A model generated the notes under the pieces. The model made no database searches and was not told where the DNA came from. It saw nothing but the letters and a program-made list of their open reading frames with translations. From assembly GCF_055900595.2 (NCBI RefSeq), contig NZ_CM148325.1: DNA of 64,000 bases, one strand, 5' to 3'. Made by a program: the position numbers and the translations under genes. Below, one piece after another: positions 20,488 through 37,796 of the stretch. Every line of letters begins with the position of its first letter. Position 1 is the stretch's first letter.

Positions 20488-20653
20488 GATGGATATCCCC
20501 GGATTCTCGCCTGTAAGTGCAGGCAGAGATCCGGGAGAATACCCGCATACATTCAGCGCAAACATTCCTGCCAGACCATCCGCGCGCGGTTCCTCTGTCA
20601 GTCACAGTCCGCATCGTAGATAAACTGATGTTCCGTAGCTGATGTAATTAAAC

Positions 20654-21268
20654 TCATATATCCGTAAGTGATTTAAAATCAGCAACACGGGCAAATTCCT
20701 TTTTCGGTAGTACCAAAGACTCTAGTCGTGCTGATAGCAGTTCAACCATAAACTCTGCCCACCCTAAGTCAAATTCATCACAAAGAGGTCCACGACTTTC
20801 ATTTATAACTATTTTCCAATTACAATTTTTTTCTAATTTCCAGAATAAAACCTCTCCACTATCAGTTATACCAAACGGGAGAACACCATCTTCCGATGGA
20901 AAAAAATTGTATGGGAATTTTTCGCCATGAAGTTTGACCTCAGCAAGAGCCGAATTTATTTCCTTTGCTTGCTCGATTAAATTAATATATGGATTATCAA
21001 CAAACGGGCTAAAGATCCAAAGGAACCCATTTATTCGTCCTATCCCATATTCATCAATAAAGGATTTATAATCTTCTGGCAACAAAATACCTAGCCTAGA
21101 CTCTGCTTTCCGCCAGTCATTGACGCCATTATAATCGTCAATAAGGTTTTTATAATCATTAGACAATTGAATACCGAGTTCAGATTCTAACCGTCCCCAA
21201 TAAGTAGTTATTTTCTCATTAATAACTGCTGGTGGCGGAATTATTTTCTTTATCATATCAATAGACAT
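20654..21268 (-). CDS. SMI1/KNR4 (SUKH-type) family protein, candidate Rhs immunity protein
   Basis: 204-aa ORF with features remembered for SMI1/KNR4 immunity proteins; located downstream of the Rhs C-terminal toxin. Confidence 0.6.
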   Translation of the reverse strand: MSIDMIKKIIPPPAVINEKITTYWGRLESELGIQLSNDYKNLIDDYNGVNDWRKAESRLGILLPEDYKSFIDEYGIGRINGFLWIFSPFVDNPYINLIEQAKEINSALAEVKLHGEKFPYNFFPSEDGVLPFGITDSGEVLFWKLEKNCNWKIVINESRGPLCDEFDLGWAEFMVELLSARLESLVLPKKEFARVADFKSLTDI

Positions 21269-21313
21269 TGTCAGTTCCCTATTGGATTCAGTATAGAATC
21301 ATTAAGCACAGTT

Positions 21314-21511
21314 TCAATTTTCATAATCCAGAATTGGCTCATCTAATGCTTCTGAATAACGAAGAAGATTCTCTCGCAAATCTTCAAGGGATTCACCTCG
21401 CGGAGACACTGGTTTTTCACTATATCCACAAACCTTACCTGCTTCATTATAATATACCTCATAGATAGCAAGCTCCCCTTTAAATTGCATAACTCTATAA
21501 TTCCAAGTCAT
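21314..21511 (-). CDS. Small hypothetical protein immediately downstream of the Rhs toxin; candidate cognate immunity protein
   Basis: 65-aa ORF starting 9 nt after the Rhs stop; position typical of an Rhs immunity gene; weak HicB-like look. Confidence 0.45.
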   Translation of the reverse strand: MTWNYRVMQFKGELAIYEVYYNEAGKVCGYSEKPVSPRGESLEDLRENLLRYSEALDEPILDYEN

Positions 21512-21519
21512 ATCTCCTC

Positions 21520-22383
21520 CTATTTTTTATGATAATCAACAATATCATGAATAATTATTTCATTTTCTGTTTCAGAATATAAAACTCTATCTCCCCCTCT
21601 TCCTTTACCACTTCCTGGTAAGTCGGCTGCTGATTTCCCTTTTAAATCACCATGTAAAGAATGCTGGTTTTTTCCTGACTCACCACGAGAAAGCATAATT
21701 TTAATAGCATCATAGGCTTCAGCTTGTTTTCCTTTGAGCGCATCCCCCTTCTTCGCCGCCAAATCCTCCTCTATGATGGTTTTCATTTGGGTAGGACATT
21801 TTTCACCTGCCAGCCCCCACGGGTCGCACCAACCCACCGGATTATGCACATAAGACTGCGTATCCAGCCCGCCGCTCAGTTTCAGCGGATCCTGGCTTAA
21901 ATACTGCCCCGTCCCGGCGTCGTAGTAGCGGTGTAAATTATACCACAGCCCGCTCTCCTCATCCTGCCACTGGCCCATGAAGCCCGCATCGCAGCTTTCA
22001 CGCTCACTGTCCGGCGAGTCGTTTGCAGCCAGCCCCCACAGGCTGCGGTGTTTCGTCCACACCTTCCGCCCGTTCGCGCAGTACATCTCCTGCGGCGCGC
22101 CGTCCGGGCCGGTCACTACCGGGTAAAAATAACTTCTGTCATCATTCGCCGCCCGGCTTTCCTTCGCCAGCAGTTCAAATCTGCCCCCGGTAGTGCCACT
22201 GCTCCCGTAGCGCCGGGCTGCCGTCTGCATAGCGTTTCTCACTTGTGGAAAGCGCCATCCCAAGCCACTGGTAGCGTACTTCGCTGATGGCGTGCGGGCT
22301 TCGTTTCCACGCTGCCCGGATAACGCAGCGTTTTGCCGTTCGTCTGCCAAAGGCGTCGTAGCTGTACTGCCACACTTCACCAT
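21520..22383 (-). CDS. rhs: Rhs C-terminal segment: end of Rhs core (DPxGL motif) plus YoeB/RelE-like toxin domain; out of frame with the upstream Rhs ORF
   Basis: Contains GLWYNLHRYYDAGTGQYLSQDPLKLSGGLDTQSYVHNPVGWCDPWGL (Rhs core end) followed by ~95 aa ending ...GKGRGGDRVLYSETENEIIIHDIVDYHKK resembling YoeB/RelE toxins; overlaps the main Rhs ORF in another frame over 22175-22383. Confidence 0.7.
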   Translation of the reverse strand: MVKCGSTATTPLADERQNAALSGQRGNEARTPSAKYATSGLGWRFPQVRNAMQTAARRYGSSGTTGGRFELLAKESRAANDDRSYFYPVVTGPDGAPQEMYCANGRKVWTKHRSLWGLAANDSPDSERESCDAGFMGQWQDEESGLWYNLHRYYDAGTGQYLSQDPLKLSGGLDTQSYVHNPVGWCDPWGLAGEKCPTQMKTIIEEDLAAKKGDALKGKQAEAYDAIKIMLSRGESGKNQHSLHGDLKGKSAADLPGSGKGRGGDRVLYSETENEIIIHDIVDYHKK

Positions 22384-25300
22384 CTGGTGTCTTTATCTCG
22401 CGCAGACGGTCGAAGTCATCCCAGCGGTAGCGCCACTCCTGCGGGCGAAAGCCGAGTTTTTGGTCGGTGCGCTTTGTCACCCTGCCGCAGGCGTCGTATC
22501 CGTAGCGGCTGTCACCGGCCTGGTTCACACATTCATTATTGTACTGGTGCTGCGACAGAATACCGTTTATCCGGCTTTCCGCTATCTGCTCATTGACCGT
22601 ATAGCGGTAGCGCTCTTCCTGTGCCGGACCACTGGCGTCCAGCCGCAGTACGCTGGTTATCTGGTCGCGGGCATCGTACTGGTAGCGCGTTTCCCGCTCC
22701 GTACGCGTTTTCGACCACACTTCATGCCCGGTCAGGCGGCCCGATTTATCCCACGCGTAACGGTGTTCGCCCAGCGGTCGCCACGATGCCACGCTCTGGT
22801 GGCTGCCTGCCAGCCGCTCTGCGCCCTGTTTTTGCCATGCCGTACGTCCGCAGGTGTCGTATCCCTGCTCCTGCATATAGACCGCATGGTTCAGCGGCGT
22901 CTGCGCCAGCCAGCTTTCCTCATCCTCCGGGCGGTAACGCCGATTTTTTTCAAGGCCCGCGGGGGAATGACTGAAGTCCATCCGGTGACCGTTGCTGCGG
23001 TAGCCCGTCAGAATGCCCGAAGCGTCGTATTCTCTCTGTGTTTCCCCGTCCGGCGTTGTGGTGCCAGTCAGCCTTCCGGCTTCGTCGTAACGGTACTCCG
23101 TGCGCTGGCCGTCCTGCTCTTCCGCCACCAGACGATGGCGTTCGTCCCACTCCAGTTTTACCTCACTGGTGAGCGTATAGCCTGCTTCACTGCCGTCGCT
23201 GCGCTCATACACCTGCGCACTCACCATCCGGTCATGGCGGTCGTACTGATAGCTGAGTTTCTGATGCTCGCCGCTGATGGTCGCCACCCGGCCATATTCA
23301 TCCCTCGCATAGCGCCATACGCTGCCGTCCGGGCGGTGTTTTTCTGCCAGCCGGCCCTGTTCATCACGGATATAGACGGTTCTGCGTCCCGACCAGTCCT
23401 CCTCCCCGGCCATCTGGCCCGCCGCATCGTAGTACAGCCGCCACTGCTGGTTGCCGCTGCGCGTAAGCTGCGTGAGCCTTGCGGCACCATCGTAGTCGCA
23501 AAGTATCCGCTGCCCGCCCGCGTCCTCCACTTCCCGCAGCAGGTCAAATGCCCCGTGGCGGTAGCGCGTGGTCTGGCCCATGGCCCCGGTGTGGAGAGTG
23601 ATTTTGCCTTCACCATCATAGCGGAAGGTTTCAGCGCCACCGTCGGCCCGGATTACTGCGCTCAGTTTCTCATGCGGGTTATCGGCACCGGGGCGGTACT
23701 GCCAGTTCACGCTGCGCCCTTCAGCATCCACCAGCCCCGTCAGCCGCAGCCAGCGGTCTTCCGTGTAATGGGTTGTGCGGCCTTCACCATCGGTATGGGA
23801 AAGCAGGCCACCGTGAGCGCTGTAGCTCCACTGTTCGTGGCTGCCGTCCGGGTACTGTATCTCCTTGAGCAGACCGTCTTCGGTATGACGGTACTGCCAG
23901 TTCTGCCCGTTCACCTCCCGGCGGATAAGATTCCCTTCGGCGTTATAATGGTACGCCGCCGTGGTGCGGTGGTCCTGGTATGCCGTAACCTGACCAAATT
24001 CATCCCACTGCCATTCACGTTTACGCCCGTTCTCGTCCGTTTCGCTCAGGATACGCCCGGCATAATCGCGTTTTATCTGAGTAATGCGCCCACCCGGCTG
24101 GCGAATACACAGCGGCTGGTCGTATTCGTTACGCTCCCATTCAGTGATACGCCCCAGCGGGTCACGCTGTTTTTTCAGCAGCCAGGACTCATCGAACCAC
24201 AGCGTGGTGGTGGCTCCGGTGGCATCGGTGTAATCGGTTCTGCGCTCCTCCGGGAAGTAGCGGAAGGTGTCGTTATACAGGCCTTCCTGTGTGCCTGTGG
24301 CAGTCACCCGGCCTTCATCGTCATAGCGCAGGTGGAAGTGCGTCGGGCCGTTGTCGCGCCAGGAACTCAGCCAGCCCTGTTCGGTATAGGTATAATGCAA
24401 CGCGCCATTAAAGCGGGTCTGCACATCGCTCAGTCGCTGTTCATCGCCGTGACTGATATAGTCATAGCGCACCAGCTCGCTGCCGTCTGACTCGTCGATC
24501 ACACGGAATATCTGCCCCTGCGGGCCACACATCACCCGCAGATTCAGGCCGCTGCTGTGGGTTACGTTTGTCAGTTGGCCGATGACGTTATAGGTGAAGC
24601 GAATTTCGTTGCGGTTGCGGTCTTTTATTGCCGTTAGCCGCAGGCGGCGTGCGCCGGGGGAGATGGGCGTAAAGATATAACCCAATTGTGAGTATTCGTC
24701 GAAGATAATAGCCCGCTCACGGTTTCCCAGGAGGCGATAGTGCGGGACAAGCAGGTTACGGCTACTGTATGGTGCCTGCTCCGTGGAGTAGGCCAGACAT
24801 AGCCCCTCAGCATCAAAGTAGGTGACGTTTTTCCCGTTGCAATCGAACTCCAGAAACTGCGACCAGTTACACAACCAGCGACTGCCCAGCAAACCACTAA
24901 CCGGATGTCGGCCTGTATAAGCACGTTTCAGCGTCAGCGGTAAAATATGCGGATAGTTGAAATCAGTTCGGTAATCCAGATATTCACCCGTTCCGGTATC
25001 CACCGGATCGCTGAACCCCTGACTGATACGCTCATTTGCGGCTCTGTTTAACTGCTTTGCTCCCCATAGAGCTGTTAACACTTCCAGACTTGATACAACA
25101 GATTGCTCCAGCACCGTCATATCGGCATTAATCGGCCCATACTGTCCGGTCGTCTTATCAGCCGTAATGGTTTTACATCCTTCCTGAATAACTGCCGAGC
25201 AGGTAATTTTATGGCCCTTACGCGCCAGCGGCAGGCTGTTGACGGAAATAATTTTGCTCCCTTCCACTATCTGTGGAGGAGGACTGCCCGGATCCTTACT

Positions 25301-25942
25301 ACATTCAACCGGATCAGTGACGCGAGCTACCGCTTTTCCTTCAAAAAAAACATTAGGAGAGCCTTCTACAATCTGTCCGGTTTCAGATGCCCAGCGGGAA
25401 CCAATTACCATCGCTGCGCCACCGACAAATCCACCAGCTAATCCCCCGGCCCCGGCAGCAACGGTGGCAGCCAGCACACCCAATGCCGCGCCCCCTGTAG
25501 CGACAACCAGAGCTCCCACTGCAATCCCTACAATAAGTCCACCGATTAACCCACCAATAGCACCCAGAAAGGAATTGTTATGAACAATGTGATGACCCAC
25601 ACACGCAGGTATATCTGTTGGGCCGGAAACTGCGTGATCTTTACCCCAGGTATCCATGAACCAGTCACCTGCTTTGGTGCCCAGCCATCCCCCCAGCATC
25701 CCGCCAACCAGTCCGGCAATCAAAGGGCCTCCAAATCCTGCAACAGCTTTGGCTATTCCGGCTGCACAGGTGTTTGCTGCTGCGGCTGCCAGTCCTACCT
25801 TTGCCGTTGCTCCCACCATACTGACAGCCATTATTCCAGTACTGGCAATATGTCCTGTGGTAGCAATACTCTCCACTGTTTCGGCATTACTGTCCCGTTG
25901 ATCCAGCTCCGCTAACTTCTCCTGCGCGCTTTTTTCCGTCAT
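22175..25942 (-). CDS. rhs: prePAAR-TMD-PAAR-Rhs T6SS effector, main ORF (YD-repeat shell)
   Basis: 1255-aa ORF: N-terminal region with Gly-rich transmembrane helices and PAAR-like segment (GSPNVFFEGKAVARVTDPVEC), then many YD repeats; stop at 22175 where another frame continues. Confidence 0.8.
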   Translation of the reverse strand: MTEKSAQEKLAELDQRDSNAETVESIATTGHIASTGIMAVSMVGATAKVGLAAAAANTCAAGIAKAVAGFGGPLIAGLVGGMLGGWLGTKAGDWFMDTWGKDHAVSGPTDIPACVGHHIVHNNSFLGAIGGLIGGLIVGIAVGALVVATGGAALGVLAATVAAGAGGLAGGFVGGAAMVIGSRWASETGQIVEGSPNVFFEGKAVARVTDPVECSKDPGSPPPQIVEGSKIISVNSLPLARKGHKITCSAVIQEGCKTITADKTTGQYGPINADMTVLEQSVVSSLEVLTALWGAKQLNRAANERISQGFSDPVDTGTGEYLDYRTDFNYPHILPLTLKRAYTGRHPVSGLLGSRWLCNWSQFLEFDCNGKNVTYFDAEGLCLAYSTEQAPYSSRNLLVPHYRLLGNRERAIIFDEYSQLGYIFTPISPGARRLRLTAIKDRNRNEIRFTYNVIGQLTNVTHSSGLNLRVMCGPQGQIFRVIDESDGSELVRYDYISHGDEQRLSDVQTRFNGALHYTYTEQGWLSSWRDNGPTHFHLRYDDEGRVTATGTQEGLYNDTFRYFPEERRTDYTDATGATTTLWFDESWLLKKQRDPLGRITEWERNEYDQPLCIRQPGGRITQIKRDYAGRILSETDENGRKREWQWDEFGQVTAYQDHRTTAAYHYNAEGNLIRREVNGQNWQYRHTEDGLLKEIQYPDGSHEQWSYSAHGGLLSHTDGEGRTTHYTEDRWLRLTGLVDAEGRSVNWQYRPGADNPHEKLSAVIRADGGAETFRYDGEGKITLHTGAMGQTTRYRHGAFDLLREVEDAGGQRILCDYDGAARLTQLTRSGNQQWRLYYDAAGQMAGEEDWSGRRTVYIRDEQGRLAEKHRPDGSVWRYARDEYGRVATISGEHQKLSYQYDRHDRMVSAQVYERSDGSEAGYTLTSEVKLEWDERHRLVAEEQDGQRTEYRYDEAGRLTGTTTPDGETQREYDASGILTGYRSNGHRMDFSHSPAGLEKNRRYRPEDEESWLAQTPLNHAVYMQEQGYDTCGRTAWQKQGAERLAGSHQSVASWRPLGEHRYAWDKSGRLTGHEVWSKTRTERETRYQYDARDQITSVLRLDASGPAQEERYRYTVNEQIAESRINGILSQHQYNNECVNQAGDSRYGYDACGRVTKRTDQKLGFRPQEWRYRWDDFDRLREIKTPDGEVWQYSYDAFGRRTAKRCVIRAAWKRSPHAISEVRYQWLGMALSTSEKRYADGSPALREQWHYRGQI

Positions 25943-25972: not shown

Positions 25973-26404
25973 TTATTTATCCTGTGGCATTCCAAAACAA
26001 AAATTCAATAATGCTCCCCGCATCGCTTTACGATCCTCCTCTGCCAGCGCCTGCGTTGAGGAATAGGTCAGCGTCAGTACTTGTCGCTCGTTCAGGATTA
26101 CCAGCAGCAACTGCTGTATCATCACCCCCTTGTTATCCCAGCTAAATTCCCAGTATTCCGCCGGGCGCTCCTGCACATGACAGCGTTCTTCTACGGTGAA
26201 CACCATTTTCGACAGTTCGGTACGGAATTTCTTTTTCTGCACCGCCAGATAGTCATCAAACTGCGCGCCTTCCGGCAATATTTCACGAGTGACAACTACA
26301 TTTGCTCCGGCAACCGCACTTAGTACTGGCGTCAGAATATTCATACTGCTGTCCTGCCAGTTTCCCGGCAGAGTGAAATGCCCTTCATTAATGAGATATT
26401 GCAT
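25973..26404 (-). CDS. eagR: DUF1795-family Eag chaperone for PAAR-Rhs effector
   Basis: 143-aa ORF between vgrG and the PAAR-Rhs gene, the canonical position and size of Eag chaperones. Confidence 0.7.
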   Translation of the reverse strand: MQYLINEGHFTLPGNWQDSSMNILTPVLSAVAGANVVVTREILPEGAQFDDYLAVQKKKFRTELSKMVFTVEERCHVQERPAEYWEFSWDNKGVMIQQLLLVILNERQVLTLTYSSTQALAEEDRKAMRGALLNFCFGMPQDK

Positions 26405-26436: not shown

Positions 26437-28656
26437 TTACTGTGGATTTAGCGCCAGATGGGTGGGTCCATCGAGGGTGATAGTGCCGTCTGAATTCATA
26501 ACAAGAGTGCTTTTTCCGACAGTCAACTTTATCTGCGTTGCTGCGGTAAGGTGTATCGCCCCGGTTTTTGACGTGATGGTGATATTCCCTTCTACCGTCT
26601 CCGTGCAGGTTCCCGTTTCTACCGTCACCTCGCGTTTACCCGTTTTCACCGTCAGAGACTGGTCGCCTTCCGTTACGGTAATATTCCGGTTGCCTTTGAT
26701 GGTTTCGGTATGCTTACCATCAACAAATTCCGTGCGGTCGATTTTTACCGTGGATGTTTCGTTATGAATGATGGTTTTCGTCCGATCTGCCTTTACCGTG
26801 TGTGTTTCGTTATTTTTCACGACGGTATTCAGATCTTTCTCCGCAAGAAACCTCACTTCTTCCGCCCCCGTTTTATCGTCAAAGCGCAGCATGTTTCCGT
26901 TGGTCGCCCCCCCCTGTAACGAGTGGCTGAATATCCCGCTCTGCGACGCCATGCCCGGTAGCCCCCACGGCGGCATGGTGTCCTGGTTGTAGGTGCGCCC
27001 CACGATAATCGGTAGATCCGGGTCGCCATTTTTGAAATCCACCAGCACTTCCTGGCCGATGCGCGGGATCTGGATCATGCCGAATCCTTTACCCGCCCAC
27101 GGATAGCTGACGCGGATCCAGCAGGAGCTGTTTTCGTCATTATTACCGTAACGATCCCAGCCAAACTGCACCTTCACCCGGCCATATTTATCCGTCCAGA
27201 TTTCCTGCCCTACCGGGCCGGTGACGATGGCGCTCTGCGGGCCTTTGGTGTGGGGTTTGCTCAGGGTTCGTTGTGGGCGGTAAACTTCGCGGGTGGGATG
27301 CAGTTCAAACGTGGTGACATAGGTAAAATGCTGATCCTGGCCGCTGTGCTGCGCGTTGTCCCGTAAAAACAGCGTGGTTTGTACCAACAGATATTCCTGA
27401 TTAATTTCTGCCGTCGGGTGATTCATCAACGTAAAGGTGTACCCGGTCATGAGGGTACGGATATGACCGGCCCCATGTGCCCGGCTGCCGGGGCTGCGCT
27501 GCGCTTCCATACGAATGCGCGTCAGCATCTCACCTTCGCCCGTAGTGAAGTAATCACCAGGCCATTCATAATGCTCATATTCAGCATGACCGGTATTACG
27601 CGGACTAGCCACGGTACTTTTAAGCAGCGAACGAGGCTTCATAAAATCAAAATCGTCCATCACCCACTTTCCAGTACGCAGTCTCTCACTGGCCGTAATG
27701 GTGTGGATAAATTCTTTGTCCAGTTTCAGCCCTTCCTGGTGCCACTCCACCAGTGGCGAGTCAGGGCACGCTTTATGACCATTGATGGCATCCGTCAGCA
27801 CCAGCGTATGGCAGTTCTCGCTGTGCTCAAACCACCAGTAGATTCCCCACTCCTGCATCAGGCGCTGGATGAAATCGAAGTCGGTTTCACCATACTGCAC
27901 CTGCCAGACGCGGGGTGGATAATTTTCCACCAGCCGCTTTTCCACCGGAAAGGAATATTCATCCAGTACTTCATCGAGAATATCCACCACGGTTTTGTTC
28001 TGGAACGCTTTGTAGTCGCTGGTATGGGTCAGCAGCTTCAGCCATGGCTCAATGCGTAATTCATACGTTACCGAACGGCCCTCATGGCCGACCACCCTCG
28101 CCGCCGTCACCAGCCCGCTGATATACCGTTTTCCGCCACCGTCCAGTTCGATACTGACGCACAGGTCTTTGCCTACCATGGGCTGAAGCGGCAGGTTGGC
28201 CGCGGGGGAAACGTATCCCAGGTTCAGGGCGTCCGGCGTTTTAAGCTGTACTGTGTAGGAAAACAGATTCCCAAGCCCTTCCGAACCATTCATGCCTGCG
28301 AACAGCAGCATCTGCGGCGGCACCGAACCACCACTTACTGTGACGTTATGCGCCCCCGGACCACCGGCTGCAAGCGACGCCGCCGCATCCTGAACTGCAC
28401 CAGCCATATCCGATATCCCTGCTGCTGCGGCGGCGGCTTGCGCAGCGGCTACTGCGGCTTTAACCAGACCTGACGGTTCCGGCAACGCACCAAACAGGTC
28501 CGCCACTGCCTGTTCTGCCATCTGCTCGGCGGCATCAGCTACATCGGTTGCGGCTGAACCTGTGCTCATACTGCCACTTTCGCCAGCTATTGGTGGTGTG
28601 GTGATGACGGGTCCACCGTTTCCAACTGGTTTATTACCCGTAGATACAAAACTCAT
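26437..28656 (-). CDS. vgrG: T6SS spike protein VgrG (TssI) with ~110-aa Ala/Gly-rich N-terminal extension
   Basis: 739-aa ORF with gp27/gp5-like regions (e.g. [15 protein letters not shown]) and C-terminal beta-helix repeats; canonical VgrG N-terminus begins after residue ~110. Confidence 0.9.
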
Positions 28657-28680: not shown

Positions 28681-29067
28681 TTAAAATCTAGCCCCTGGTG
28701 GCCAAAAAATATAAGTAATCACTCTCCATTGCCCGTCTTTATAATGAAACCAACATGTCAGATTCAAATCCCCCTGCAAATTCCAGAACATTTCCTTAAT
28801 AGGAACATTTTGAAATTCAGGATCTGTTATGCGATAAGTTTGATTCAAGCCGATATAATACTCACCAACAAATTTATATCGTGGCCTCACGAACTCATGA
28901 GCAGGCGGCCCATATTTCTTCATAAAAAAGATGTCATTACTTCCATCATGTATATCATTTTCTTCATAATATTTGGTGGATTGAGCAACTGCAGAAGGCG
29001 AGAAAACATTCACTGTAGTTATGTAAGTTATTGAAAGGAAAATCACTATAATACAGAAAAATTTCAT
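28681..29067 (-). CDS. Putative periplasmic immunity protein for the adjacent HExxH effector
   Basis: 128-aa ORF with N-terminal signal-like hydrophobic segment; overlaps effector stop; C-terminal half conserved with the paralog at 30776-31147 (PIKEMFW..GDLNLTC.FHYKDGQWRVI.Y.FWPPGA.F). Confidence 0.6.
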   Translation of the reverse strand: MKFFCIIVIFLSITYITTVNVFSPSAVAQSTKYYEENDIHDGSNDIFFMKKYGPPAHEFVRPRYKFVGEYYIGLNQTYRITDPEFQNVPIKEMFWNLQGDLNLTCWFHYKDGQWRVITYIFWPPGARF

Positions 29068-29765
29068 TTGGTTACATTCAATAAAGTAAATTTAGTTTCA
29101 GGCATTATGACATTCAACGTTATAGTTGCGTTTTTAAGGTATCGTTCCCGAAGCTCCATTCCCACATTCATCAACCCACTAATATCTCCAACATACGGAG
29201 ACGAAGAATCATAATCATCATCTAAGTAACCAAGTACATGTCCGGCTTCATGAGGTATATTTACTTGCAACGTATTATTACAGTTAATACATTTCGCTAC
29301 TTTTTCCAGGTCCGCTGAATCAACATGAACCGTACTGTTTTTAAAATCAACATATGTTCTTAAATCAGCACCAGGCAAAACCTTTGTTGCAATAACCAAC
29401 CAGTCTTCATTCTGAGATGCAGAAATTATTCTTACATCAAAAGGCAAAGCTTTACCCTGAAATTTTTTAGCGAACTCAGATTCACCGGAAACAGAATAAG
29501 TTATTTTCCCATTCCATGCCTGCTGAACAGATAAATATATCGCTCGCATAAAAATAGCTTTTTCCCATATAATCCAGTCATCTGTAACGGTATTATCTTT
29601 ATACCACTCATACTTCCATCTTATCACAGCCGTAATCGAACCAGTATTTTGATTTAATAAATACGTCCTCCTACCATCCTTATGTATAATGATATCGCCA
29701 TCAATATTTGTTTTTTCATAGTATTCGGCCAGCAAACTATTCTCATCATATTTAAGCTTGGTCAT
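29064..29765 (-). CDS. Putative T6SS effector with HExxH zinc-metallopeptidase-like motif
   Basis: 233-aa ORF, no signal peptide, contains NIPHEAGHVLGY; followed by overlapping signal-peptide ORF; sits between vgrG copies. Confidence 0.6.
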   Translation of the reverse strand: MTKLKYDENSLLAEYYEKTNIDGDIIIHKDGRRTYLLNQNTGSITAVIRWKYEWYKDNTVTDDWIIWEKAIFMRAIYLSVQQAWNGKITYSVSGESEFAKKFQGKALPFDVRIISASQNEDWLVIATKVLPGADLRTYVDFKNSTVHVDSADLEKVAKCINCNNTLQVNIPHEAGHVLGYLDDDYDSSSPYVGDISGLMNVGMELRERYLKNATITLNVIMPETKFTLLNVTK

Positions 29766-29831
29766 TTTACTCTCATTAAATACTAATTGTTTGTATCGAA
29801 AATATTATCTGGAAAAATATTATTTTATATA

Positions 29832-30751
29832 TTACGAGTATTGCCCCTTCAGCCGCAGCGCATCCACATACCGTCCTTCACTGCAGGGCAAGATTACGAA
29901 AGCCCGCCCCGCAAGGACTGACGCGAGGTAGTTTCTGTCCATGGCTGCTTTTATCATCTTACGTCTTAACCCTGCCTTGGTTTCGCCGTACTGCACCTGC
30001 CAGGCGCGGGGTGGATAATTTTCCACCAGCCGCTTTTCCACCGGAAAGGAATATTCATCCAGTACTTCATCGAGAATATCCACCACGGTTTTGTTCTGGA
30101 ACGCTTTGTAGTCGCTGGTATGGGTCAGCAGCTTCAGCCATGGCTCAATGCGTAATTCATACGTTACCGAACGGCCCTCATGGCCGACCACCCTCGCCGC
30201 CGTCACCAGCCCGCTGATATACCGTTTTCCGCCACCGTCCAGTTCGATACTGACGCACAGGTCTTTGCCTACCATGGGCTGAAGCGGCAGGTTGGCGGCG
30301 AGGGAGACATATCCGAGGTTCAGGGTGTCCGGGGTTTTAAGCTGTACTATGTAGGAAAACAGGTTTCCAAGCCCTTCCGAACCATTCATGCCTGCAAACA
30401 AAAGCAGCTGCGGCGGCACCGCACTACCACTTACTGTGACGTTATGCCCCCCGGACCACCGGCAGCAAGCGACGCCGCCGCATCCTGAACTGCACCAGCC
30501 ATATCCGAGATCCCTGCTGCGGCGGCTGCGGCTTGCGCAGCAGCTACTGCGGCTTTAACCAGACCTGACGGTTCCGGCAACGCACCAAACAGGTCCGCCG
30601 CGGCCTGTTCTGCCATCTGCTCGGCTGCATCAGCTACATCGGTTGCGGCTGAACTGGCGCTTACAGCACTACTTTCTCCGGCTATCGGTGGCGTGGAGAT
30701 AGCTGGCCCACCGTTACTGCCAGATTTATTACCCGTAGATACAAAACTCAT
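29832..30751 (-). pseudogene. vgrG: Truncated, frameshifted vgrG duplicate fused to H-repeat and tagF 3' remnants
   Basis: Two ORFs (30431-30751 and 29832-30419) match the first ~270 aa of the full vgrG; frame broken at a C-run near 30445-30455; 3' end reads ...[24 protein letters not shown] (H-repeat protein C-terminus) then ...[10 protein letters not shown] (tagF C-terminus). Confidence 0.75.
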
Positions 30752-30775
30752 GATATTTATTCCTTTAATATCGGA

Positions 30776-31147
30776 TTAAAATTTTGCGCCCGGCGGCCAG
30801 AAAAAATAAGAAATAACCCGCCACTGTCCATCTTTATAATGAAAAAAACATGTCAGATTTAAATCCCCCCGCAAATGCCAAAACATTTCTTTGATGGGGA
30901 TATTTCTGAATTCAGGATTCGTTGAGCGATAGACATTTTCAATCTCTATATAATACTCACCGACTAATTTATAACGAGGCTTTATAAATTCATACGCTGG
31001 CTGACCATAGTTATTTAATAGAACATTCTCTTCAACTCCATTATACACACCACTCGCATTCAGATAAGCATACCCAGGAATATCAGACATGCTATTTTTC
31101 GCCCCACCCACTATCAAAAAAATAATCACAGCGTATATTAGTTTCAT
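30776..31147 (-). CDS. Putative periplasmic immunity protein (paralog of 28681-29067)
   Basis: 123-aa ORF with N-terminal hydrophobic signal-like segment; C-terminal half conserved with the other immunity paralog. Confidence 0.6.
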   Translation of the reverse strand: MKLIYAVIIFLIVGGAKNSMSDIPGYAYLNASGVYNGVEENVLLNNYGQPAYEFIKPRYKLVGEYYIEIENVYRSTNPEFRNIPIKEMFWHLRGDLNLTCFFHYKDGQWRVISYFFWPPGAKF

Positions 31148-31160
31148 TTTTTTACGCTTT

Positions 31161-31882
31161 TCACAAAAAATTAGAACCCGGAACCATTCTATTTAACCGC
31201 TCAATGACATTTCCCATATAACGAGAGCGCAGTTCCATACCAATATTCATTAACGCACTGGCATCCCCGGAGAATGGTGTAGTTGCTTTATCTGCATCAT
31301 CACTATAGTATTCATCGGTAAGATATCCAATAATATGCCCAAGCTCATGAGACAGCCCCATTTGCTTAGAGCAAACTTTTGATGAACCAAGACATTTAGC
31401 TGCTGCAACTATATCTTTAGAGTCAAGTTCAACGTATCGACTATTCCAGACAATGGAACTCTGACGAAAACTATTTGGATCATCATTATCAATTTTAAAC
31501 ACCACCACATCCCAATACCCATGACGATCAGTCTGAATTATTTCTATTGTGAAAGATAAATCCTTACCATTAAACTTACTGACAAACTCAGACTTCCCAG
31601 AAACGGATAAAAAAACCTTATTATTCCATGTTTGATTAATGACAAAAATAACTTTTCCATGAAAGGCTTTTTTTCCATATCTGTCCAATCAGTTTTTGCA
31701 TCCCATCTTTTTATCCAATTATATTTCCATCTCAGCAACAATGAGATTGCACCATTTTCACGGTCAATTCTTAAATCTCCCCAGGCATCATTGTCCCTGA
31801 TATATCGTTTATCCAGCATTAAGTCGTCATAAGCATCGTATGCCTGCTGAATAGCCTCATCATGAGAGTCACCCATGTTCAC
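31161..31882 (-). pseudogene. HExxH-motif putative effector, paralog of 29064-29765, apparently frameshifted
   Basis: Two overlapping ORFs (31544-31882 N-terminal part, 31161-31688 C-terminal part with HELGHIIGY and LMNIGMELRSRY); frame break near a T/A homopolymer at ~31660-31690. Confidence 0.6.
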
Positions 31883-32068: not shown

Positions 32069-32190
32069 TTATTTTTTTTCCAACCGCAGCGCATCCACAT
32101 ACCGCCCCTCGCTGTTCTGCTGCCACAACCAGCCCAGCCCCTGCTGCGCCTGCGTTAACATTTTTGCTAGCCAGCACGGTCACGGCAGGC
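32069..32190. repeat. Remnant of tagF 3' end
   Basis: Minus-strand reading gives [26 protein letters not shown], matching the C-terminus of the intact TagF at 33163-33260 ([31 protein letters not shown]). Confidence 0.75.
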
Positions 32191-32206: not shown

Positions 32207-32680
32207 CTACTCATCCGTACAACCCAGCCCCCGGCGCTGAACCACTTCACTGGCAAACGTAGCTCCGGTTTTTTTCATTATTCCTTTTTGTATTTTTTGC
32301 AGCGCGGGAAATGAGATTCTCCTGCATGAATCCTCTTCCCATATATCACCAGTTACAGGGCTAACTGAAAATAGTCCCCACACATCTGTCGCTCCGGCGG
32401 AAGGAGAATCATAACCTACCCCAAAACTAAAATACCCAGGATGATACAGGTTACCTTTTTTATCTTTCAGAGAACCGTCAAGAAAAAACCCAGACAATTC
32501 CACATTATATTTTTCATTTTTTAGTGAAAAAACCAATAATGCCTGCGCCTGTATTTCAGTAAGACCTGACTGGTTAACAGTCGTTAGATCAAACCGCGGC
32601 ACATTCCTGATAAGAATTTCAGCACAACAATTCACGGACACGACCATGAAAAGCAATACTGATATTAATTTACAGGACAT
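32207..32680 (-). CDS. Putative periplasmic immunity protein for the adjacent GH73-like effector
   Basis: 157-aa ORF with signal-like N-terminus MSCKLISVLLFMVVSVNCCA; overlaps effector stop. Confidence 0.5.
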   Translation of the reverse strand: MSCKLISVLLFMVVSVNCCAEILIRNVPRFDLTTVNQSGLTEIQAQALLVFSLKNEKYNVELSGFFLDGSLKDKKGNLYHPGYFSFGVGYDSPSAGATDVWGLFSVSPVTGDIWEEDSCRRISFPALQKIQKGIMKKTGATFASEVVQRRGLGCTDE

Positions 32681-33135
32681 GTTATTCTCCGCTTAACCAT
32701 ATTAATCACCCCCACTAACTCACTAGCATAACCGGTATGGCCGCCATTACTGTTTTTACCTGAATTAAAACCAGAATCAATCAATGCCTGCGCAAATTGC
32801 TCCGGAGATTTTTTATTTCTGACCGCATTACCAAATCGGATTGCAAAGGACTTTCCGCTAGTTGAAAAAGAGGTATAAGTGGCAACCCACACTTGATTAC
32901 TCCCCAGCGGGTGAACCTGTCCTGACTGTAAAGGTGCCGGACCATGCATGGAAAAGTAGTTATTGTATTCTGTCGCGATTCTACCCTGCCCGTAAAAGGA
33001 CTCCTTTGCAGCAAGCCCCAGGATATTTTCCACAGGCACATCAAGTTGCTTAGCGATTAATTCACATTCTTTCAGATATTGCTGTACAAACCTGACTGCA
33101 CCAGTGTTATTACAGGCTTTATCATAAGACCCCAT
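32665..33135 (-). CDS. Putative T6SS glycoside-hydrolase effector (GH73/FlgJ-like glucosaminidase motif)
   Basis: 156-aa ORF without signal peptide; LGLAAKESFYGQGRIATEYNNYFSMHG resembles the GH73 catalytic-Glu region (A-x-E-S-x-x-G ... NN-x-F-G) as remembered; directly downstream of tagF. Confidence 0.5.
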   Translation of the reverse strand: MGSYDKACNNTGAVRFVQQYLKECELIAKQLDVPVENILGLAAKESFYGQGRIATEYNNYFSMHGPAPLQSGQVHPLGSNQVWVATYTSFSTSGKSFAIRFGNAVRNKKSPEQFAQALIDSGFNSGKNSNGGHTGYASELVGVINMVKRRITCPVN

Positions 33136-33162: not shown

Positions 33163-33933
33163 TTAATGCGGCCGGATATCCAGCCGCAACGCATCCACAT
33201 ACCGCCCCTCGCTGTTCTGCTGCCAGAACCAGCCCTGCCCCTGCTGCGCCTGCGTCAGCATTTTGTCCGGCCAGCCCGGCCACGGCAGGTGGCGCACACC
33301 GGGCAGTTCCACTACCGGCACGTCCGGCAGGCCGGTGAGTTCCCGGCTACGCTGCGGTACACGTCGTAAGCCGCGTAGCCACTGCGCCCAGCGCGGCCCC
33401 GGTCGCCACATCGCCCAGAGCTGGTCTGTCTGCTCCGCCAGTCGACCGCAGCGTTCTGTCTGTGGTGAGACATGAGCTGCCGTCAACTGCGCCAGCCAGT
33501 ACAGCCAGCCCTGTGTGTCATCCAGGCTCTCTTCCAGCCATTCCCGCCCGACACGCTGGTAAATCACCAGTGGCCACGGCCTGCCCGTACTGTCACGCGA
33601 GGCGGTCAGCACCCCGGTCAGCCACTCATCGCGCCCGCCAATGGGGAGAAATCCCGGCGACAGCACAAAACTCCACGGCAATGGGTGGTGCTCCGGTAGT
33701 GCCGTTTTCTCACGTGGTGACAGGTGCATCCAGCCGTCATTTGTTCCGGCCTTCTCGGCATCCGCGCCGTCCGGCACCACGATATGCCGCCCCTGTCCCA
33801 GCCACGTCTGCTGGTTCAGCCACGCCTGCCACACCTGCCCTTCGTTCGCGCTCACCCGCCAGCGCACGTAGTCCCGCTGGTCCGGCAGTCTGCCGAACAT
33901 CGCCGGAGCCGATACCTCTGCCCGGCGCATCAC
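33163..33933 (-). CDS. tagF: T6SS-associated protein TagF
   Basis: 256-aa ORF translationally coupled to the tssM stop (ATGA overlap); region PWSFVLSPGFLPIGGRDEWLTGVLTASRDSTGRPWPLVIY resembles TagF as remembered. Confidence 0.7.
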   Translation of the reverse strand: MMRRAEVSAPAMFGRLPDQRDYVRWRVSANEGQVWQAWLNQQTWLGQGRHIVVPDGADAEKAGTNDGWMHLSPREKTALPEHHPLPWSFVLSPGFLPIGGRDEWLTGVLTASRDSTGRPWPLVIYQRVGREWLEESLDDTQGWLYWLAQLTAAHVSPQTERCGRLAEQTDQLWAMWRPGPRWAQWLRGLRRVPQRSRELTGLPDVPVVELPGVRHLPWPGWPDKMLTQAQQGQGWFWQQNSEGRYVDALRLDIRPH

Positions 33934-36900
33934 AGCGCTCGCTCCGGGCAGGCGAAGCGTTGCAATAGCCCGCGGTTCACCGGGTCAAAATCCCGTCCGG
34001 CGGTGATTTCCAGCACCACCCGCCGCCCGTCAAAACTGTACTCCACCTGCTGTGTTCCCCGTACCACCGTCTCCTGCGCGTTACCCGCATCCAGCAGGTG
34101 AAACAGCGCCCATGGCCCGTTAGTCAGCAACGTCGAGGTGTCCTGGCGGATGCGCGGGCTGGCGGTGATTTCCGCCATTGAGCCGTTGCGCGGCCCCGGC
34201 CAGTTCACTTTCAGCGGCCTGACCGGGCCGTGAGCGTAGCGAAGCACCTGGCCGTCAATGTCAATCACCAGTTCGGTGATGGCAGGGTCCATATCCACCA
34301 CCCGCACCTGCATCGCCCAGGAAAACTTTTTCCCGCCTTCCCCATTAAAAAAAACGCTGCGGATCTGTTTCGCCTCCTGAAACGGTGTCAGGTCCGGCCC
34401 AAGCAACGTCATGTTGCCTTCGGTCGGTTTGTAGCGCCACGGGTTGCTGGCGGTGTCCGCCAGTGGGGCCAGTTGCTTCGTCCAGAACGCATCCAGCACG
34501 CCGCCGCTGGCAAAGATATGGTTAAAATCGTCCGCGCTGACTTCCTGCGGGCTGTCGGTGAAGGGGTAGCGCCCGTCGATGGCGTCGCGGCACTCATCAC
34601 CGATCACCGCTTCCATCTGCGCGTTCAGCACTTCACCGGTGCCGGCGTTGATTTTTCGCGTTCCCTGCTGCGTGAGATCCAGCAGAATATTTTTCAGTGG
34701 CGCGGGCAGTTTTGCCGCCTCCAATTGCAGTTTATCCGCCGCAGAAATGCGGCCAGGTAATGTGCTCGCTGCCAGTGCACTATCAGCGATGGTGAGCTGG
34801 GTGTAATACTCATTGAGCATCGTCAGCAGCGAATTTAACTGCGGCGCGCCGCCGCCCTGCCCGCTGTCTGTCCGCCCGGAAACCACTTCCCGCAAGGCGG
34901 CGAAACGGTCATCCACCAGTGATTTCTCTAGCCGCTCTTCCGGGTGGATGTCCTGCAATAGCTTTGCCGTCTGCACTGCTTTTCCCACATTGCCGGAGAG
35001 CCGGTCCTGCGTGCGCTGGGCCATCTGCTTTTGTCTGGCCTGCGCATCCAGCGGCGGCACCAGCGTGGTCTGCTCCACCACCGCTTTACTCAGGCGCATC
35101 AGCGGGGAATCCGGCGAGGCCAGGGTACGCAGCACCTGAAGGTCATACGCCAGCCCGGGACTGCCGTCTTCCCCGGCACTGTTGATGCTGTGAATACTGG
35201 CCAGAAAATCCTGCCAGCGGCGGGCATATTCAGCCAGGTACAGGCGGCGTACCTCACGGGTAACCGGGAGTTCCTGCCCCGGCAACTGGCTCATCACAAT
35301 ATCCGTCGTTTTTTTTTGCGTGTTTTCCCGGCCCATCACCCAGGCGTCGTCCGCTGATGCGGCTGCGACAAACTCCGACAGCCGTTTGTCGAACAGTTCC
35401 CGGTAGCCTTCGCGAGTGAAGATGCCGGGCACGCCCCGATCCAGCGGCGCGCCATCCGTGCGGACAAAAACCGTTCCCGCATCCGCGCCCACAGCGCGAA
35501 CCAGCGAAAACTCCTGCGGTGCTTCGCTCTCCATGGAAGCCAGGGCTCGAGTGTAGATACGCTCGGTGCTGGTATGGCCGTCAAGGAAAGCTCGCGCCTG
35601 GCGGATCAGCCCCTCATCTTTTTCCCAGGGCAAATGCACCACGCGGCTGCCGTCAAACAGGGCATCGATATGCTCCAGCACGGCGGCGCGACCGCCGAAC
35701 TCCGCCACGCTGTCGCGGTTGCCCAGGTCGTTCAGCACCCAGGCGTGGATCTCCGCCGCGTTGTATTTATCCTCGTGGTCCTTATCGAGGTTCAGCAACA
35801 GATAAACATGCAGGGCGTCATAGGCGGCTTTGCTGTCCTGACGCGCAATCGCATCCGAAAGCACGTATTCCATGCGTTTCACCAGCGGTGGCAGCAGTAA
35901 CTGGTCCAGCAGACGGTCATACAGGGATGCGACGCTCTCCATCACCGGCGGAACGCTGTAAAGACCATAACACCAGGCCAGCGGCGGCGAGTCCGGGTCC
36001 AGTCCCGGCCATGCAGAGAGCGCCCGTGCCTGGTTCAGCAGGGCCGGAACAGGCTGCATAGCAGGTTTTCCGGTATAGGCTTTGACATCACCATCCAGTT
36101 GGGTCGTCCGGCTGGCGATTTCATTCAGATAACCGCTGTTCCCCTGCTGGCTACCCTGCATGCCCTGCCACAACCAGAAAGCCAGCGCCAGTACCAGCAG
36201 ATGCCCGCCAGTACGCAGCAGGCGATAACGCCAGGCCCATTGAAGATTCGGCTCCACCAGGTGCGCTTCGCGGAAGATAAACTGCGTCAGTAGATCGTGC
36301 AGGAAATAGCTGCGGTTGCCGTCCGGCAGGGTATGGGATGGGGAATCAGCCTTCCCTTTGATCGCCCGGACAAAACGCTGCCAGATGCCCGACTGGTCAG
36401 CCACGGCGTCTGCCTGCGCCTGCGCGGCGCTGGTAAAAAATACGCCGCGCAGGGTGTTGTTAAGCTGGGTGGCGTCAAATTTTGAGTCGAGGAAAATCTG
36501 CTCAATGGCTTCCAGCAGCGGCGCACCCAGCGCGGCAAATTCACGCGGGAAGCGGTAGAGCCGCTGGCGGCTTTGAAGGTCGTACTCTTCCTGCAACCGG
36601 GTATCCAGCCCCTGATCCAGCCGCAGCGTCAGGTTTGCCAGTTCCCGGCCACAGAGCGCATGCAGCGACTGCGGATCGCTGGCGTGACGCCTGCGGCTGT
36701 AAGGCAGGGTGAAGCCCCAAACCTGGGCGCGCAGGTGGCTGGTCAGCCCGTGGAAATACTCCGTAAAGCCCGGCAGCAGATCCATTTTGGTGACGACCAG
36801 ATAGACCGGAAAACGAATACCCAGCGTCTCCCGCAGTTCCGCCAGCCGCGCACGCAGGGCCGCACAGGCAGCCAGTCGTTCCGCCGGGGACTGCGCGGTC

Positions 36901-37796
36901 AGATCCGCCACGTTCAGCGTCAGGATCACACCGTTGAGCGGTGCGCCAGGGCGGTGCTTACGCAGCAGCCCAAGAAACCCCTGCCACTCCCCGGCGTTAC
37001 GCTGAGTCGCGCTGATTTCGCCGCCGTCATCGTGGCGGGCATAGCGCCCGGCGGTATCGATGAGTACAGCCTCGTTGGTGAACCACCAGTCACAGTGCAG
37101 CGTGCCGCCGCCCGGCACGGTGAGGATATGCGCGGTCTGCTCCATCTGCTCCGCCAGCGGAAACTGTAGCCCGGTGTTAAGTAGCGCGGTGGTTTTGCCA
37201 TCGCCGGGGCTGCCGATAACCATAAACCACGGCAGTTCGTACAGGAAGCGCTTCCCTTCCAGGACCTTACGCCAGCCGGGCAGGTCCACCCGCAGTTGTT
37301 TCAGTTGCCGGATGGCACGGGTGACAATATGGCTGACCGTGCGCAGGTCGGCTTTAATTTCCCCGGCCACCGGCACGTCTTCCCCGCGCGGATGCAGGAA
37401 ACGGCGCAGCAGTTGTTCATCCAGGCGCAGCGCCCGCCACAGTCGGTACAGGCCATAAAGCGCATAAGTCAGCAGGATCAGGCCGATAAGCGTCAGACGC
37501 AGCCACAGCGGCGCAAACGGGCGAACGTCACCGAAGGCCAGCAGGGGTGAAACAAAACCGATGACCAGGCACAGAACCGTTACGCCAATGATGCTCATCG
37601 ACCAGTTCACCAGCCACAGGGCGAGGAACATCAGTAACAGAACGATGGTGACTACCCGGCTCCCCACAGATGCCAGCGGATGCAGGGTATCAAACGCCAC
37701 CAGCGGCCCGATAAACCAGACCAGCAACGCCAGCATCACCACGCCGACAACGGCCAGCGCGCGGCGGGAAAACAGCATACTGAGAAATTTTTGCAT
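33930..37796 (-). CDS. tssM: T6SS membrane core protein TssM (IcmF)
   Basis: 1288-aa ORF with N-terminal transmembrane helices, Walker A (GSPGDGKTT) and long periplasmic region. Confidence 0.9.
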   Translation of the reverse strand: MQKFLSMLFSRRALAVVGVVMLALLVWFIGPLVAFDTLHPLASVGSRVVTIVLLLMFLALWLVNWSMSIIGVTVLCLVIGFVSPLLAFGDVRPFAPLWLRLTLIGLILLTYALYGLYRLWRALRLDEQLLRRFLHPRGEDVPVAGEIKADLRTVSHIVTRAIRQLKQLRVDLPGWRKVLEGKRFLYELPWFMVIGSPGDGKTTALLNTGLQFPLAEQMEQTAHILTVPGGGTLHCDWWFTNEAVLIDTAGRYARHDDGGEISATQRNAGEWQGFLGLLRKHRPGAPLNGVILTLNVADLTAQSPAERLAACAALRARLAELRETLGIRFPVYLVVTKMDLLPGFTEYFHGLTSHLRAQVWGFTLPYSRRRHASDPQSLHALCGRELANLTLRLDQGLDTRLQEEYDLQSRQRLYRFPREFAALGAPLLEAIEQIFLDSKFDATQLNNTLRGVFFTSAAQAQADAVADQSGIWQRFVRAIKGKADSPSHTLPDGNRSYFLHDLLTQFIFREAHLVEPNLQWAWRYRLLRTGGHLLVLALAFWLWQGMQGSQQGNSGYLNEIASRTTQLDGDVKAYTGKPAMQPVPALLNQARALSAWPGLDPDSPPLAWCYGLYSVPPVMESVASLYDRLLDQLLLPPLVKRMEYVLSDAIARQDSKAAYDALHVYLLLNLDKDHEDKYNAAEIHAWVLNDLGNRDSVAEFGGRAAVLEHIDALFDGSRVVHLPWEKDEGLIRQARAFLDGHTSTERIYTRALASMESEAPQEFSLVRAVGADAGTVFVRTDGAPLDRGVPGIFTREGYRELFDKRLSEFVAAASADDAWVMGRENTQKKTTDIVMSQLPGQELPVTREVRRLYLAEYARRWQDFLASIHSINSAGEDGSPGLAYDLQVLRTLASPDSPLMRLSKAVVEQTTLVPPLDAQARQKQMAQRTQDRLSGNVGKAVQTAKLLQDIHPEERLEKSLVDDRFAALREVVSGRTDSGQGGGAPQLNSLLTMLNEYYTQLTIADSALAASTLPGRISAADKLQLEAAKLPAPLKNILLDLTQQGTRKINAGTGEVLNAQMEAVIGDECRDAIDGRYPFTDSPQEVSADDFNHIFASGGVLDAFWTKQLAPLADTASNPWRYKPTEGNMTLLGPDLTPFQEAKQIRSVFFNGEGGKKFSWAMQVRVVDMDPAITELVIDIDGQVLRYAHGPVRPLKVNWPGPRNGSMAEITASPRIRQDTSTLLTNGPWALFHLLDAGNAQETVVRGTQQVEYSFDGRRVVLEITAGRDFDPVNRGLLQRFACPERAL

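Follow-up and report, generated by a model that had tools for sequence, protein, structure and literature searches.

Paralogous cassettes in an Escherichia coli type VI secretion cluster encode a predicted zinc-peptidase effector and a putative BamE/BLIP-like immunity protein

Results

Two paralogous putative effector-immunity gene pairs in a T6SS cluster

The 64,000-nucleotide stretch of DNA analysed here (contig NZ_CM148325.1 of RefSeq assembly GCF_055900595.2; hereafter the window) is a segment of an Escherichia coli chromosome with 95–98% identity to several complete genomes, and contains a complete type VI secretion system (T6SS) cluster with TssB, TssC, TssK, TssL, TssM, TagF, VgrG, and PAAR-Rhs. 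Within this cluster, two cassettes, E1-I1 and E2-I2, each consist of a gene for a putative effector (E) followed by a gene for a putative immunity protein (I) (Table 1). We consider it likely that both are cassettes of a T6SS resembling that of Salmonella pathogenicity island 6 (SPI-6), and that they encode a T6SS-delivered periplasmic zinc peptidase together with its cognate inhibitor. An initial annotation of the locus had delimited the cassettes and had interpreted their four open reading frames (ORFs), which like all genes of the cassette region lie on the minus strand, as a zinc-peptidase effector without a signal peptide and a signal-bearing immunity partner. Coordinates and motifs were confirmed, and the interpretation is supported by an invariant active site, a conserved partner, Hcp and VgrG neighbours, and the fold of the immunity protein.

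E1 carries HEAGHVLGY at residues 172–180, with the HEAGHVLGYLDDDY motif encoded at about 29211–29252, and repaired E2 carries HELGHIIGY. Aligned over 222 aa, E1 and repaired E2 are 34% identical (E = 7e-46). I1 and I2 are 51% identical overall (E = 1e-49), with 57 of 80 residues (71%) identical in their C-terminal domain. These similarities are far above chance, so that the paralogy of the cassettes and the common C-terminal half of the small proteins, both noted initially, are real. At the level of sequence, E1-I1 shows the generic features of T6SS effector-immunity pairs: it is bicistronic and vgrG-linked, the effector has no export signal, and the immunity protein has a signal-like N-terminus. 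The N-termini were compared by Kyte-Doolittle hydropathy, taking the best 15-residue window in the first 40 aa, a measure that is not a signal-peptide predictor; it gave −0.32 for E1 versus 2.53 for I1 and 2.30 for I2, in line with the original assignment. The small gene had also been described as overlapping its effector gene. This is the case for I1 and E1, which share 4 nt (ATGA), but not for I2 and E2 in the window, where a shifted E2 stop codon has removed the 4-nt overlap seen in intact relatives.

The effectors belong to a divergent family with an invariant HExxH site

None of E1, E2, I1, and I2 matched a family in Pfam, NCBIfam, PADLOC, or PHROGs, and E1 gave no Pfam match even at E ≤ 10. 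A word-indexed homologue search with E1 returned just eight close clusters, which were enterobacterial, and the family became visible by exhaustive profile search, with 327 representatives (50% clustering) at E ≤ 1e-3 and 168 at E ≤ 1e-10. Its members are mostly standalone proteins of ~215 aa with hydrophilic N-termini, most of them without a signal peptide, and some homologues are fused to peptidoglycan-binding modules of three kinds (LysM, PG_binding_1/SleB-like, and OmpA-C-like). Proteins of 104 and 123 aa of the I2 type are listed among the members of the 90%-identity cluster of intact E2, probably a clustering artefact of fused or overlapping gene calls, and sizes of the E2 cluster need to be read with care.

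In an alignment of 71 homologues (mean column identity 20%, members at 20–30% identity), H172, E173, H176, D183, and G202 were invariant in all sequences. Near-invariant positions (61–70 of 71) were W64, Y185 (70/71), R208 (70/71), K128, W122, D194, and M199 (61/71), and G179 was present in 56. The resulting signature of the effectors reads RWKYxW ... HExGHxxG ... DEY ... D..S[IL]MNxG..LRxR[HY]. The invariance of His, Glu, His, and Asp across sequences this divergent argues that catalysis has been retained.

The HEAGHVLGYLDDDY motif of E1 has the extended zinc-binding arrangement of metzincins, in which HExxHxxG precedes a His or Asp that serves as third ligand. As in M64 peptidases, the Asp is displaced by one residue towards the C-terminus relative to the canonical HExxHxxGxxD. 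Comparison of the family profile with PDB sequences gave motif-level matches only, the best of them to M64 igalysins, in which HEFGHSFGGLADEY aligns residue for residue with the HEFGHxxGxxxDEY of the family. An [IL]-M-N-x-G segment containing M199 and G202 lies at the expected distance before the C-terminal helix and is a probable Met-turn, and the fold comprises the five-stranded sheet, active-site helix, and C-terminal helix of a metzincin catalytic domain. The Peptidase_M64 hidden Markov model (HMM) recognised just one of the 71 members at E ≤ 1e-3 and Reprolysin_4 none, so that membership at Pfam thresholds was not found for either. We place E within the metzincin clan (MEROPS clan MA(M)), as a separate, distant branch without a family model of its own, with Asp183 as the probable third zinc ligand and Glu173 as the probable catalytic base. 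Tox-HopH1/M91, a Rhs-fused domain linked to Salmonella pathogenicity island 19 (SPI-19), was considered as an identity for E and rejected as a different, Rhs-linked domain.

The immunity proteins are predicted to share a BamE/BLIP-like domain and end in Phe

I1 has a hydrophobic N-terminus with an AVA-Q cleavage-like site, followed by a linker and a C-terminal domain ending in Phe. Its AlphaFold model (pLDDT 86.9; > 90 for residues ~40–120) shows an N-terminal helix (residues 2–20), a flexible linker, and a small alpha/beta domain. Fold relatives of the model are periplasmic proteins of the BamE/OsmE/BLIP fold, including BtiO (9UU1), TsiN (9J9W), and BLIP/BLP, with only 8–16% sequence identity and unrelated partners. 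As modelled, the C-terminal domain of I1 and I2 is BamE/BLIP-like and resembles solved T6SS immunity proteins as well as enzyme inhibitors. The BamE/BLIP fold is that of periplasmic lipoproteins and of tight-binding enzyme inhibitors, and we know of no member that inhibits a metallopeptidase. BteO, the effector partner of BtiO, is a non-enzymatic OmpA binder (PMC12541434). It was rejected as a relative of E, since the likeness is confined to the immunity fold.

The immunity family carries the signature ...EFR.EL.N ... I.E.TW ... N.T.W[FY] ... W ... [ED]F-COOH, with an invariant Glu (I-K-E-x-x-W) and conserved Trp residues. Its C-terminus is nearly always an aromatic residue after an acidic or small one (EF, DF, or VF, with RF/KF in E. 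coli), the terminal Phe being residue 128 in I1 and 123 in I2. Such a conserved free C-terminus is unusual and may be relevant to inhibition. Signal and linker form the variable part of the family, while motifs of the folded domain persist across phyla. The initial expectation that the immunity proteins are diversifying did not hold, given these motifs and the 71% identity of the folded domain between I1 and I2.

The pair is conserved across diderm phyla and recurs beside T6SS genes

Species-representative genomes were scanned with a tighter sub-alignment, whose pattern HEFGH[ATS]xGN biases the sample to that subgroup and away from Enterobacteriaceae. The scan returned 48 loci, all from diderm bacteria and many from free-living environmental hosts, with a majority in Bacteroidota and others in Alpha-, Beta-, and Gammaproteobacteria and Acidobacteriota. 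For 42 loci it was possible to call an E ORF, and 39 of these had an adjacent downstream ORF of about 125–170 aa, frequently with a 4-nt overlap. An HMM built from enterobacterial I proteins alone recognised 33 of the 39 partners (E ≤ 6e-5). A lipobox-like motif was present in 25 partners and a C-terminal Phe in 35.

Clustering of neighbouring ORFs revealed VgrG directly downstream in 15 loci (Bacteroidota) and Hcp/TssD upstream in 14, as well as Rhs in four and a TssG-like protein in four. Bacteroidota loci are often ordered Hcp-E-I-VgrG, so that the E-I-vgrG order of the window recurs in another phylum and another T6SS subtype. A Mesorhizobium locus (L015) appears, judged by eye from N-terminal sequences, to follow tssG-clpV. 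LysM-fused effectors of Rhodobacteraceae and their immunity gene (L040:9779–11022; also L035 and L038) lie between mreB and PBP2/rodA on the opposite strand, with no T6SS gene within 10 kb, a position that could reflect an insertion hot spot or hint at a role outside T6SS.

E2 is a pseudogene beside an intact immunity gene

In the window, E2 is split into two ORFs (31544–31882 and 31161–31688), and addition of one A to an A7 run (about 31667–31676) joins them into a single 240-aa frame. Five related genomes encode intact E2 as a 244-aa ORF with a 4-nt overlap with I2. The nearest relative, strain R32_14_1F, has A8 and T7 where the window has A7 and T6. The change from T7 to T6 converts the E2 C-terminus from ...NFFVKSVKK-stop to ...NFL-stop, shifting the stop codon and abolishing the overlap with I2. 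At the frameshift site, GAGAAAAATGCC is found in most intact E2 alleles, while the lineage of R32_14_1F and the window has an uninterrupted A8 or A7 run. A point mutation gave rise to this slippage-prone tract, which later contracted, so that on/off switching is conceivable.

Alignment of 34 kb to the nearest genome gave 98.0% identity with 642 mismatches. Homopolymer indels of 1 nt occurred at the two E2 sites and nowhere else in this alignment, and ~25 kb of core genes contained no indels. An independent assembly encodes the identical frameshifted 110-aa E2 product (P0042). Because of this match and the absence of other homopolymer indels, an assembly error is unlikely, and sequencing error was judged unlikely as a cause on the same grounds. 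Two homopolymer contractions have made E2 a genuine pseudogene, which bears out the frameshift noted at the start, and I2, intact beside a dead effector gene, is an orphan immunity gene. Further shortened N-terminal fragments of the effector family form database clusters of their own (P0034, P0035, P0038), suggesting that effector decay is common.

The cassettes lie in an array probably built at tagF and vgrG repeats

In the direction of transcription, the array runs tssM, tagF, Tge2/Tgi2PP pair, E2-I2, vgrG fragment, E1-I1, vgrG, DcrB, and PAAR-Rhs (Table 1). The Tge2-like/Tgi2PP-like pair (32207–33135) is the first cassette of the same array, and other strains have Tae4/Tai4 at its position. 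In the nearest genome, the T6SS cluster is bordered by tRNA-Asp, dnaQ, and rnhA. The GC content is 0.35–0.375 in the cassettes, 0.55 in vgrG, and 0.62–0.66 in tssM/tagF, in agreement with the initial annotation, which had described the cassettes as more AT-rich than the T6SS core and as lying beside vgrG copies, of which one is full-length and one a 5′ fragment.

Table 1 Features of the cassette region and its flanks in the window
Feature	Position	Strand	Remark
tssM	33930-37796	-	
tagF, upstream limit of the variable region holding the cassettes	33163-33933	-	TIGR03373
Tge2-like glucosaminidase, 156 aa	32665-33135	-	Weak FlgJ-type match
Tgi2PP-like immunity gene, 157 aa, signal-bearing	32207-32680	-	RefSeq name in relatives: Tgi2PP family T6SS immunity protein
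tagF 3′-end remnant, just upstream of E2	32079-32189	-	89% identical to 33179-33289
E2, effector pseudogene, frameshifted	31161-31882	-	Likely ATG at 31876
Frameshift site in E2, A7 on coding strand	31667-31676	-	From comparison with relatives
Second homopolymer contraction in E2, T6 versus T7	31164-31171	-	From comparison with relatives
I2, intact immunity paralogue, 123 aa	30776-31147	-	
vgrG 5′ fragment between the two cassettes, shortened and frame-disrupted	29832-30751	-	Duplicates roughly 27737-28656
E1, intact effector, 233 aa, 26.7 kDa	29064-29765	-	
I1, putative immunity protein, 128 aa	28681-29067	-	
vgrG, full-length spike gene directly downstream of E1-I1	26437-28656	-	TIGR03361, E = 2e-165
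DcrB/DUF1795 gene	25973-26404	-	
PAAR-Rhs	22175-25942	-	

Each cassette starts right after a tagF C-terminal remnant and is followed by a vgrG 5′ end. About 920 nt of the vgrG 5′ end are duplicated with a spacing of 2095–2096 nt, the last ~17 codons of the vgrG fragment (29832–29882) are a tagF C-terminal remnant, and the tagF 3′ remnant upstream of E2 marks a cassette junction. In single-cassette genomes, the E-I pair lies directly between tagF and vgrG. From this layout, repeated rounds of homologous recombination at tagF-3′ and vgrG-5′ sequences are the best explanation of the array. The variable region corresponds to "VR2" of Salmonella SPI-6 (PMC10469887). The vgrG fragment itself is broken into two ORFs (30431–30751 and 29832–30419) and differs from R32_14_1F by a 21-nt indel at ~30526, in the Ala-rich N-terminal region.

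E1-I1 was found in 34 and E2-I2 in 18 of 5426 complete E. coli genomes. Relative to R32_14_1F, E1-I1 is 100% and E2-I2 99.4% identical, compared with the 98.0% of the surrounding 34 kb, a difference that may point to a later exchange of the cassettes than of the core cluster. Low GC content, rarity, and effector decay with the immunity gene kept are the behaviour of accessory cassettes.

At the far end of the array, PAAR-Rhs is split into two overlapping out-of-frame ORFs on the minus strand (22175–25942 and 21520–22383). Several small indels relative to R32_14_1F fall at 21873–22302, within the divergent C-terminal toxin region, and the split may mark a second pseudogene or a junction formed by recombination. 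The interval 20500–21500, which directly follows the Rhs C-terminal region in the direction of transcription, has a low GC content (0.36–0.41) and contains a 204-aa ORF (20654–21268, minus strand), which by its position may be the Rhs immunity gene.

Discussion

A putative periplasm-acting metzincin with a cognate inhibitor

From the features described above, we infer how secretion, toxicity, compartment of action, inhibition, and substrate of E might be arranged. E would be a ~27-kDa cytoplasmic protein without a signal peptide that travels as non-covalent cargo on the VgrG spike or Hcp tube, the full-length vgrG encoding the likely carrier of E1, and that is fired into the periplasm of neighbouring Gram-negative cells. 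There, its minimal metzincin-type catalytic domain, with zinc held by H172, H176, and D183 (HExxHxxG...DEY, as in M64 igalysins) and E173 as general base, would act on a conserved component of the envelope by cleaving a peptide bond, whether in the peptides of peptidoglycan or in proteins or lipoproteins associated with it. The producer would export I to its own periplasm via a Sec-type signal or anchor, or as a lipoprotein in most other phyla, and the BamE/BLIP-like domain of I would bind incoming E tightly and so neutralise it. More speculatively, the conserved ...E/D-F-COOH terminus of I might insert into the active-site cleft of E. Because the immunity protein appears to be exported or lipid-anchored, the toxic activity should be periplasmic, and the fusions to peptidoglycan-binding modules point to the cell wall as the site of action. 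Conservation of active site and immunity domain from E. coli to Flavobacteria suggests that the target is probably a universal envelope component.

Several points weigh against this interpretation. In roughly half of the distant loci, T6SS genes are absent within 10 kb, for example in Snodgrassella; these may be orphan effector-immunity islands, for which T6SS delivery would be an extrapolation. Conservation of the immunity domain is higher than is usual among T6SS immunity proteins. At 27 kDa, E is large for the Hcp lumen, and a dedicated adaptor gene was not seen at the locus, where the neighbouring DcrB/DUF1795 gene probably serves the downstream PAAR-Rhs. Zinc geometry and Met-turn are read from sequence only, and we found no secretion, toxicity, or protection experiments on any member in the literature searched.

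The loci remote from T6SS genes, including L006, would also fit a generic secreted or lysis-associated cell-wall peptidase with its inhibitor, whose T6SS-adjacent copies are mere hot-spot passengers. Fusions to LysM, PG_binding_1, and OmpA-like modules are typical of autolysins, and the Rhodobacteraceae copies sit within an elongasome gene neighbourhood. However, almost all E proteins have no signal peptide and could not reach their own wall by Sec or Tat, and in T6SS it is normal to find orphan effector-immunity pairs well away from the apparatus. Moreover, the Hcp-E-I-VgrG and tagF-E-I-vgrG arrangements recur independently in Bacteroidota T6SS-iii and enterobacterial T6SS-i, and the family was found in diderm phyla only, albeit in a pattern-biased scan. 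We therefore regard such a generic module as unlikely.

The similarity of the immunity fold to BtiO, the partner of non-enzymatic BteO, raises the question of whether E is a non-catalytic binding effector with a vestigial HExxH motif. Alternatively, E might be an anti-eukaryotic protease, as many metzincins and M91/NleD-type effectors target eukaryotic proteins. Neither agrees well with His, Glu, His, and Asp being invariant in 71 highly divergent sequences, with a strictly co-inherited periplasmic partner that indicates a bacterial periplasmic target, or with the many free-living environmental hosts, and we consider both very unlikely. It is also highly improbable that the ORF pairs are non-functional remnants or that the E2 frameshift is an assembly artefact. 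Both E2 lesions do lie in homopolymers, the classic pattern of sequencing error, and the nearby vgrG fragment and Rhs are disrupted as well. Against this, the 34-kb alignment has no further homopolymer indels, an independent assembly has the same product, E1-I1 is intact and recurs with 100% identity in another strain, and the family is conserved across phyla. Least probable of all is that E remodels the peptidoglycan of its own cell for T6SS assembly, as TagX and MltE do, with I as a regulator: its place inside the T6SS cluster beside tagF and vgrG, its peptidase fold, and its links to peptidoglycan-binding modules would suit this role, but the pair is present in just 0.3–0.6% of complete E. 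coli genomes while the same T6SS type is far commoner, the slot is taken elsewhere by other pairs (Tae4/Tai4, Tge2/Tgi2), E2 has decayed beside intact apparatus genes, the low GC content points to horizontal acquisition, and without a signal peptide E cannot enter the periplasm of its producer.

If E is indeed a periplasm-acting T6SS zinc peptidase, it would represent a second family of such toxins, unrelated to Tpe/VgrG2b, and an unusually broad one, with at least 327 clusters at 50% identity in three or more phyla and two T6SS subtypes. A bolder possibility, which we hold to be doubtful, is that it forms a phylum-spanning effector superfamily of T6SS-i (Proteobacteria) and T6SS-iii (Bacteroidota), in which a minimal Asp-ligand metzincin attacks a universally conserved envelope target that T6SS toxins are not yet known to hit and is countered by a metallopeptidase inhibitor of a new type, a BamE/BLIP-fold lipoprotein that plugs the active site via its invariant C-terminal Phe carboxylate. 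The target could then be an Lpp, OmpA, or Pal tether, or a stem-peptide bond cleaved by a metzincin mechanism. Given the conservation of the immunity domain, there might also be cross-protection between divergent effectors, such as I2 against E1. Knowing the target could expose a previously unrecognised weak point of the Gram-negative envelope, and the inhibitor-like fold of the immunity protein is conserved enough for structural study. Both E and I are currently annotated as "hypothetical", without a Pfam or NCBIfam model, and the alignments supply clear signatures for them. The locus in the window is also an example of cassettes accumulating at tagF/vgrG repeats and of an orphan immunity gene being kept.

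Comparison with known systems

We found no description of the E family in E. coli in the literature searched, nor of E in surveys of T6SS in Enterobacter and Shiga toxin-producing E. coli (STEC). The suggestion in the initial annotation that this is a poorly described class stands insofar as E has no Pfam or NCBIfam model, but overstated the novelty, as the Tpe-type class of periplasmic metallopeptidases is known and Salmonella orthologues were catalogued in 2023 as in-silico candidates. New relative to the literature searched are the breadth of the family across phyla and T6SS subtypes, the assignment of E to the metzincin fold, the BamE/BLIP-like immunity fold and the invariant Phe at its C-terminus, the fusions to peptidoglycan-binding modules, and the history of cassettes and pseudogene at this locus.

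In Salmonella SPI-6, the layout tssM-tagF-E-I-vgrG-DcrB-Rhs places the pair in the same slot as in the window. The Salmonella effector (243 aa; L007:6273–7004) is 45.7% identical to E1 (E = 2e-81) and 46.9% to E2 (E = 8e-68), and its immunity protein (144 aa) shares 72% identity over 78% of I1. Blondel et al. 2023 listed two 243-aa cargo candidates of SPI-6 VR2 in silico, "Reprolysin_4" (e.g. SESEF3709_03438, SEES3845_018655, and CS349_18880) and "Peptidase_M64" (NCTC7411_03656), with downstream immunity partners bearing a signal peptide or transmembrane segment (PMC10469887). Members of the E family share weak affinities to the same Pfam models, and the candidates appear to belong to this family, the locus tags being matched by size, position, serovar, and Pfam affinities rather than by accession. 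In Salmonella, the annotation "peptidoglycan hydrolase (amidase)" is a guess without specific support. Unlike in Salmonella, the E. coli paralogues of the window form a tandem array with one decayed copy. A degraded second-effector remnant, HEIGHTLLYLEDEY ... GVMNIGTELREHY, lies downstream of the Salmonella immunity gene (L008:7387–7761, L007:7615–7761), which indicates that tandem accretion and decay have occurred in SPI-6 as well. The E family is probably also the STox_19 group, described as "metallopeptidase, cargo, antibacterial" and found in 164 of 10k Salmonella genomes, with EOV2532878.1 as its representative (PMC12994826).

As peptidases, the closest relatives of E are the M64 igalysins (3P1V, 4DF9, and the T. 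ramosa IgA protease) and M7 snapalysin (1C7K, 4HX3), which likewise belong to the metzincin clan and use Asp as third ligand. The sequence likeness to E1 is limited to ~25 residues (E = 0.03–0.3), and E1 differs in an extra N-terminal beta-rich segment with the RWKYxW motif. Known M64 and M7 members are secreted proteases, not contact-delivered toxins.

The functionally closest characterised system is the Tpe-Tpi class, comprising Tpe1/Tpi1 of A. baylyi and the VgrG2b C-terminal domain (VgrG2b C-ter; PDB 6H56) with PA0261 of P. aeruginosa (Wood et al. 2019, PMC6899460). These HExxH zinc-peptidase effectors are toxic only in the periplasm and are neutralised by direct binding of immunity proteins that are exposed to the periplasm, whether soluble, lipoprotein, or membrane-anchored (PMC6899460). 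VgrG2b C-ter had no peptidoglycan hydrolase activity and may release lipoproteins (PMC6899460). Homology of E to VgrG2b C-ter or Tpe1 was not detectable, so that E, by analogy, probably works like the Tpe effectors without being a member of their family.

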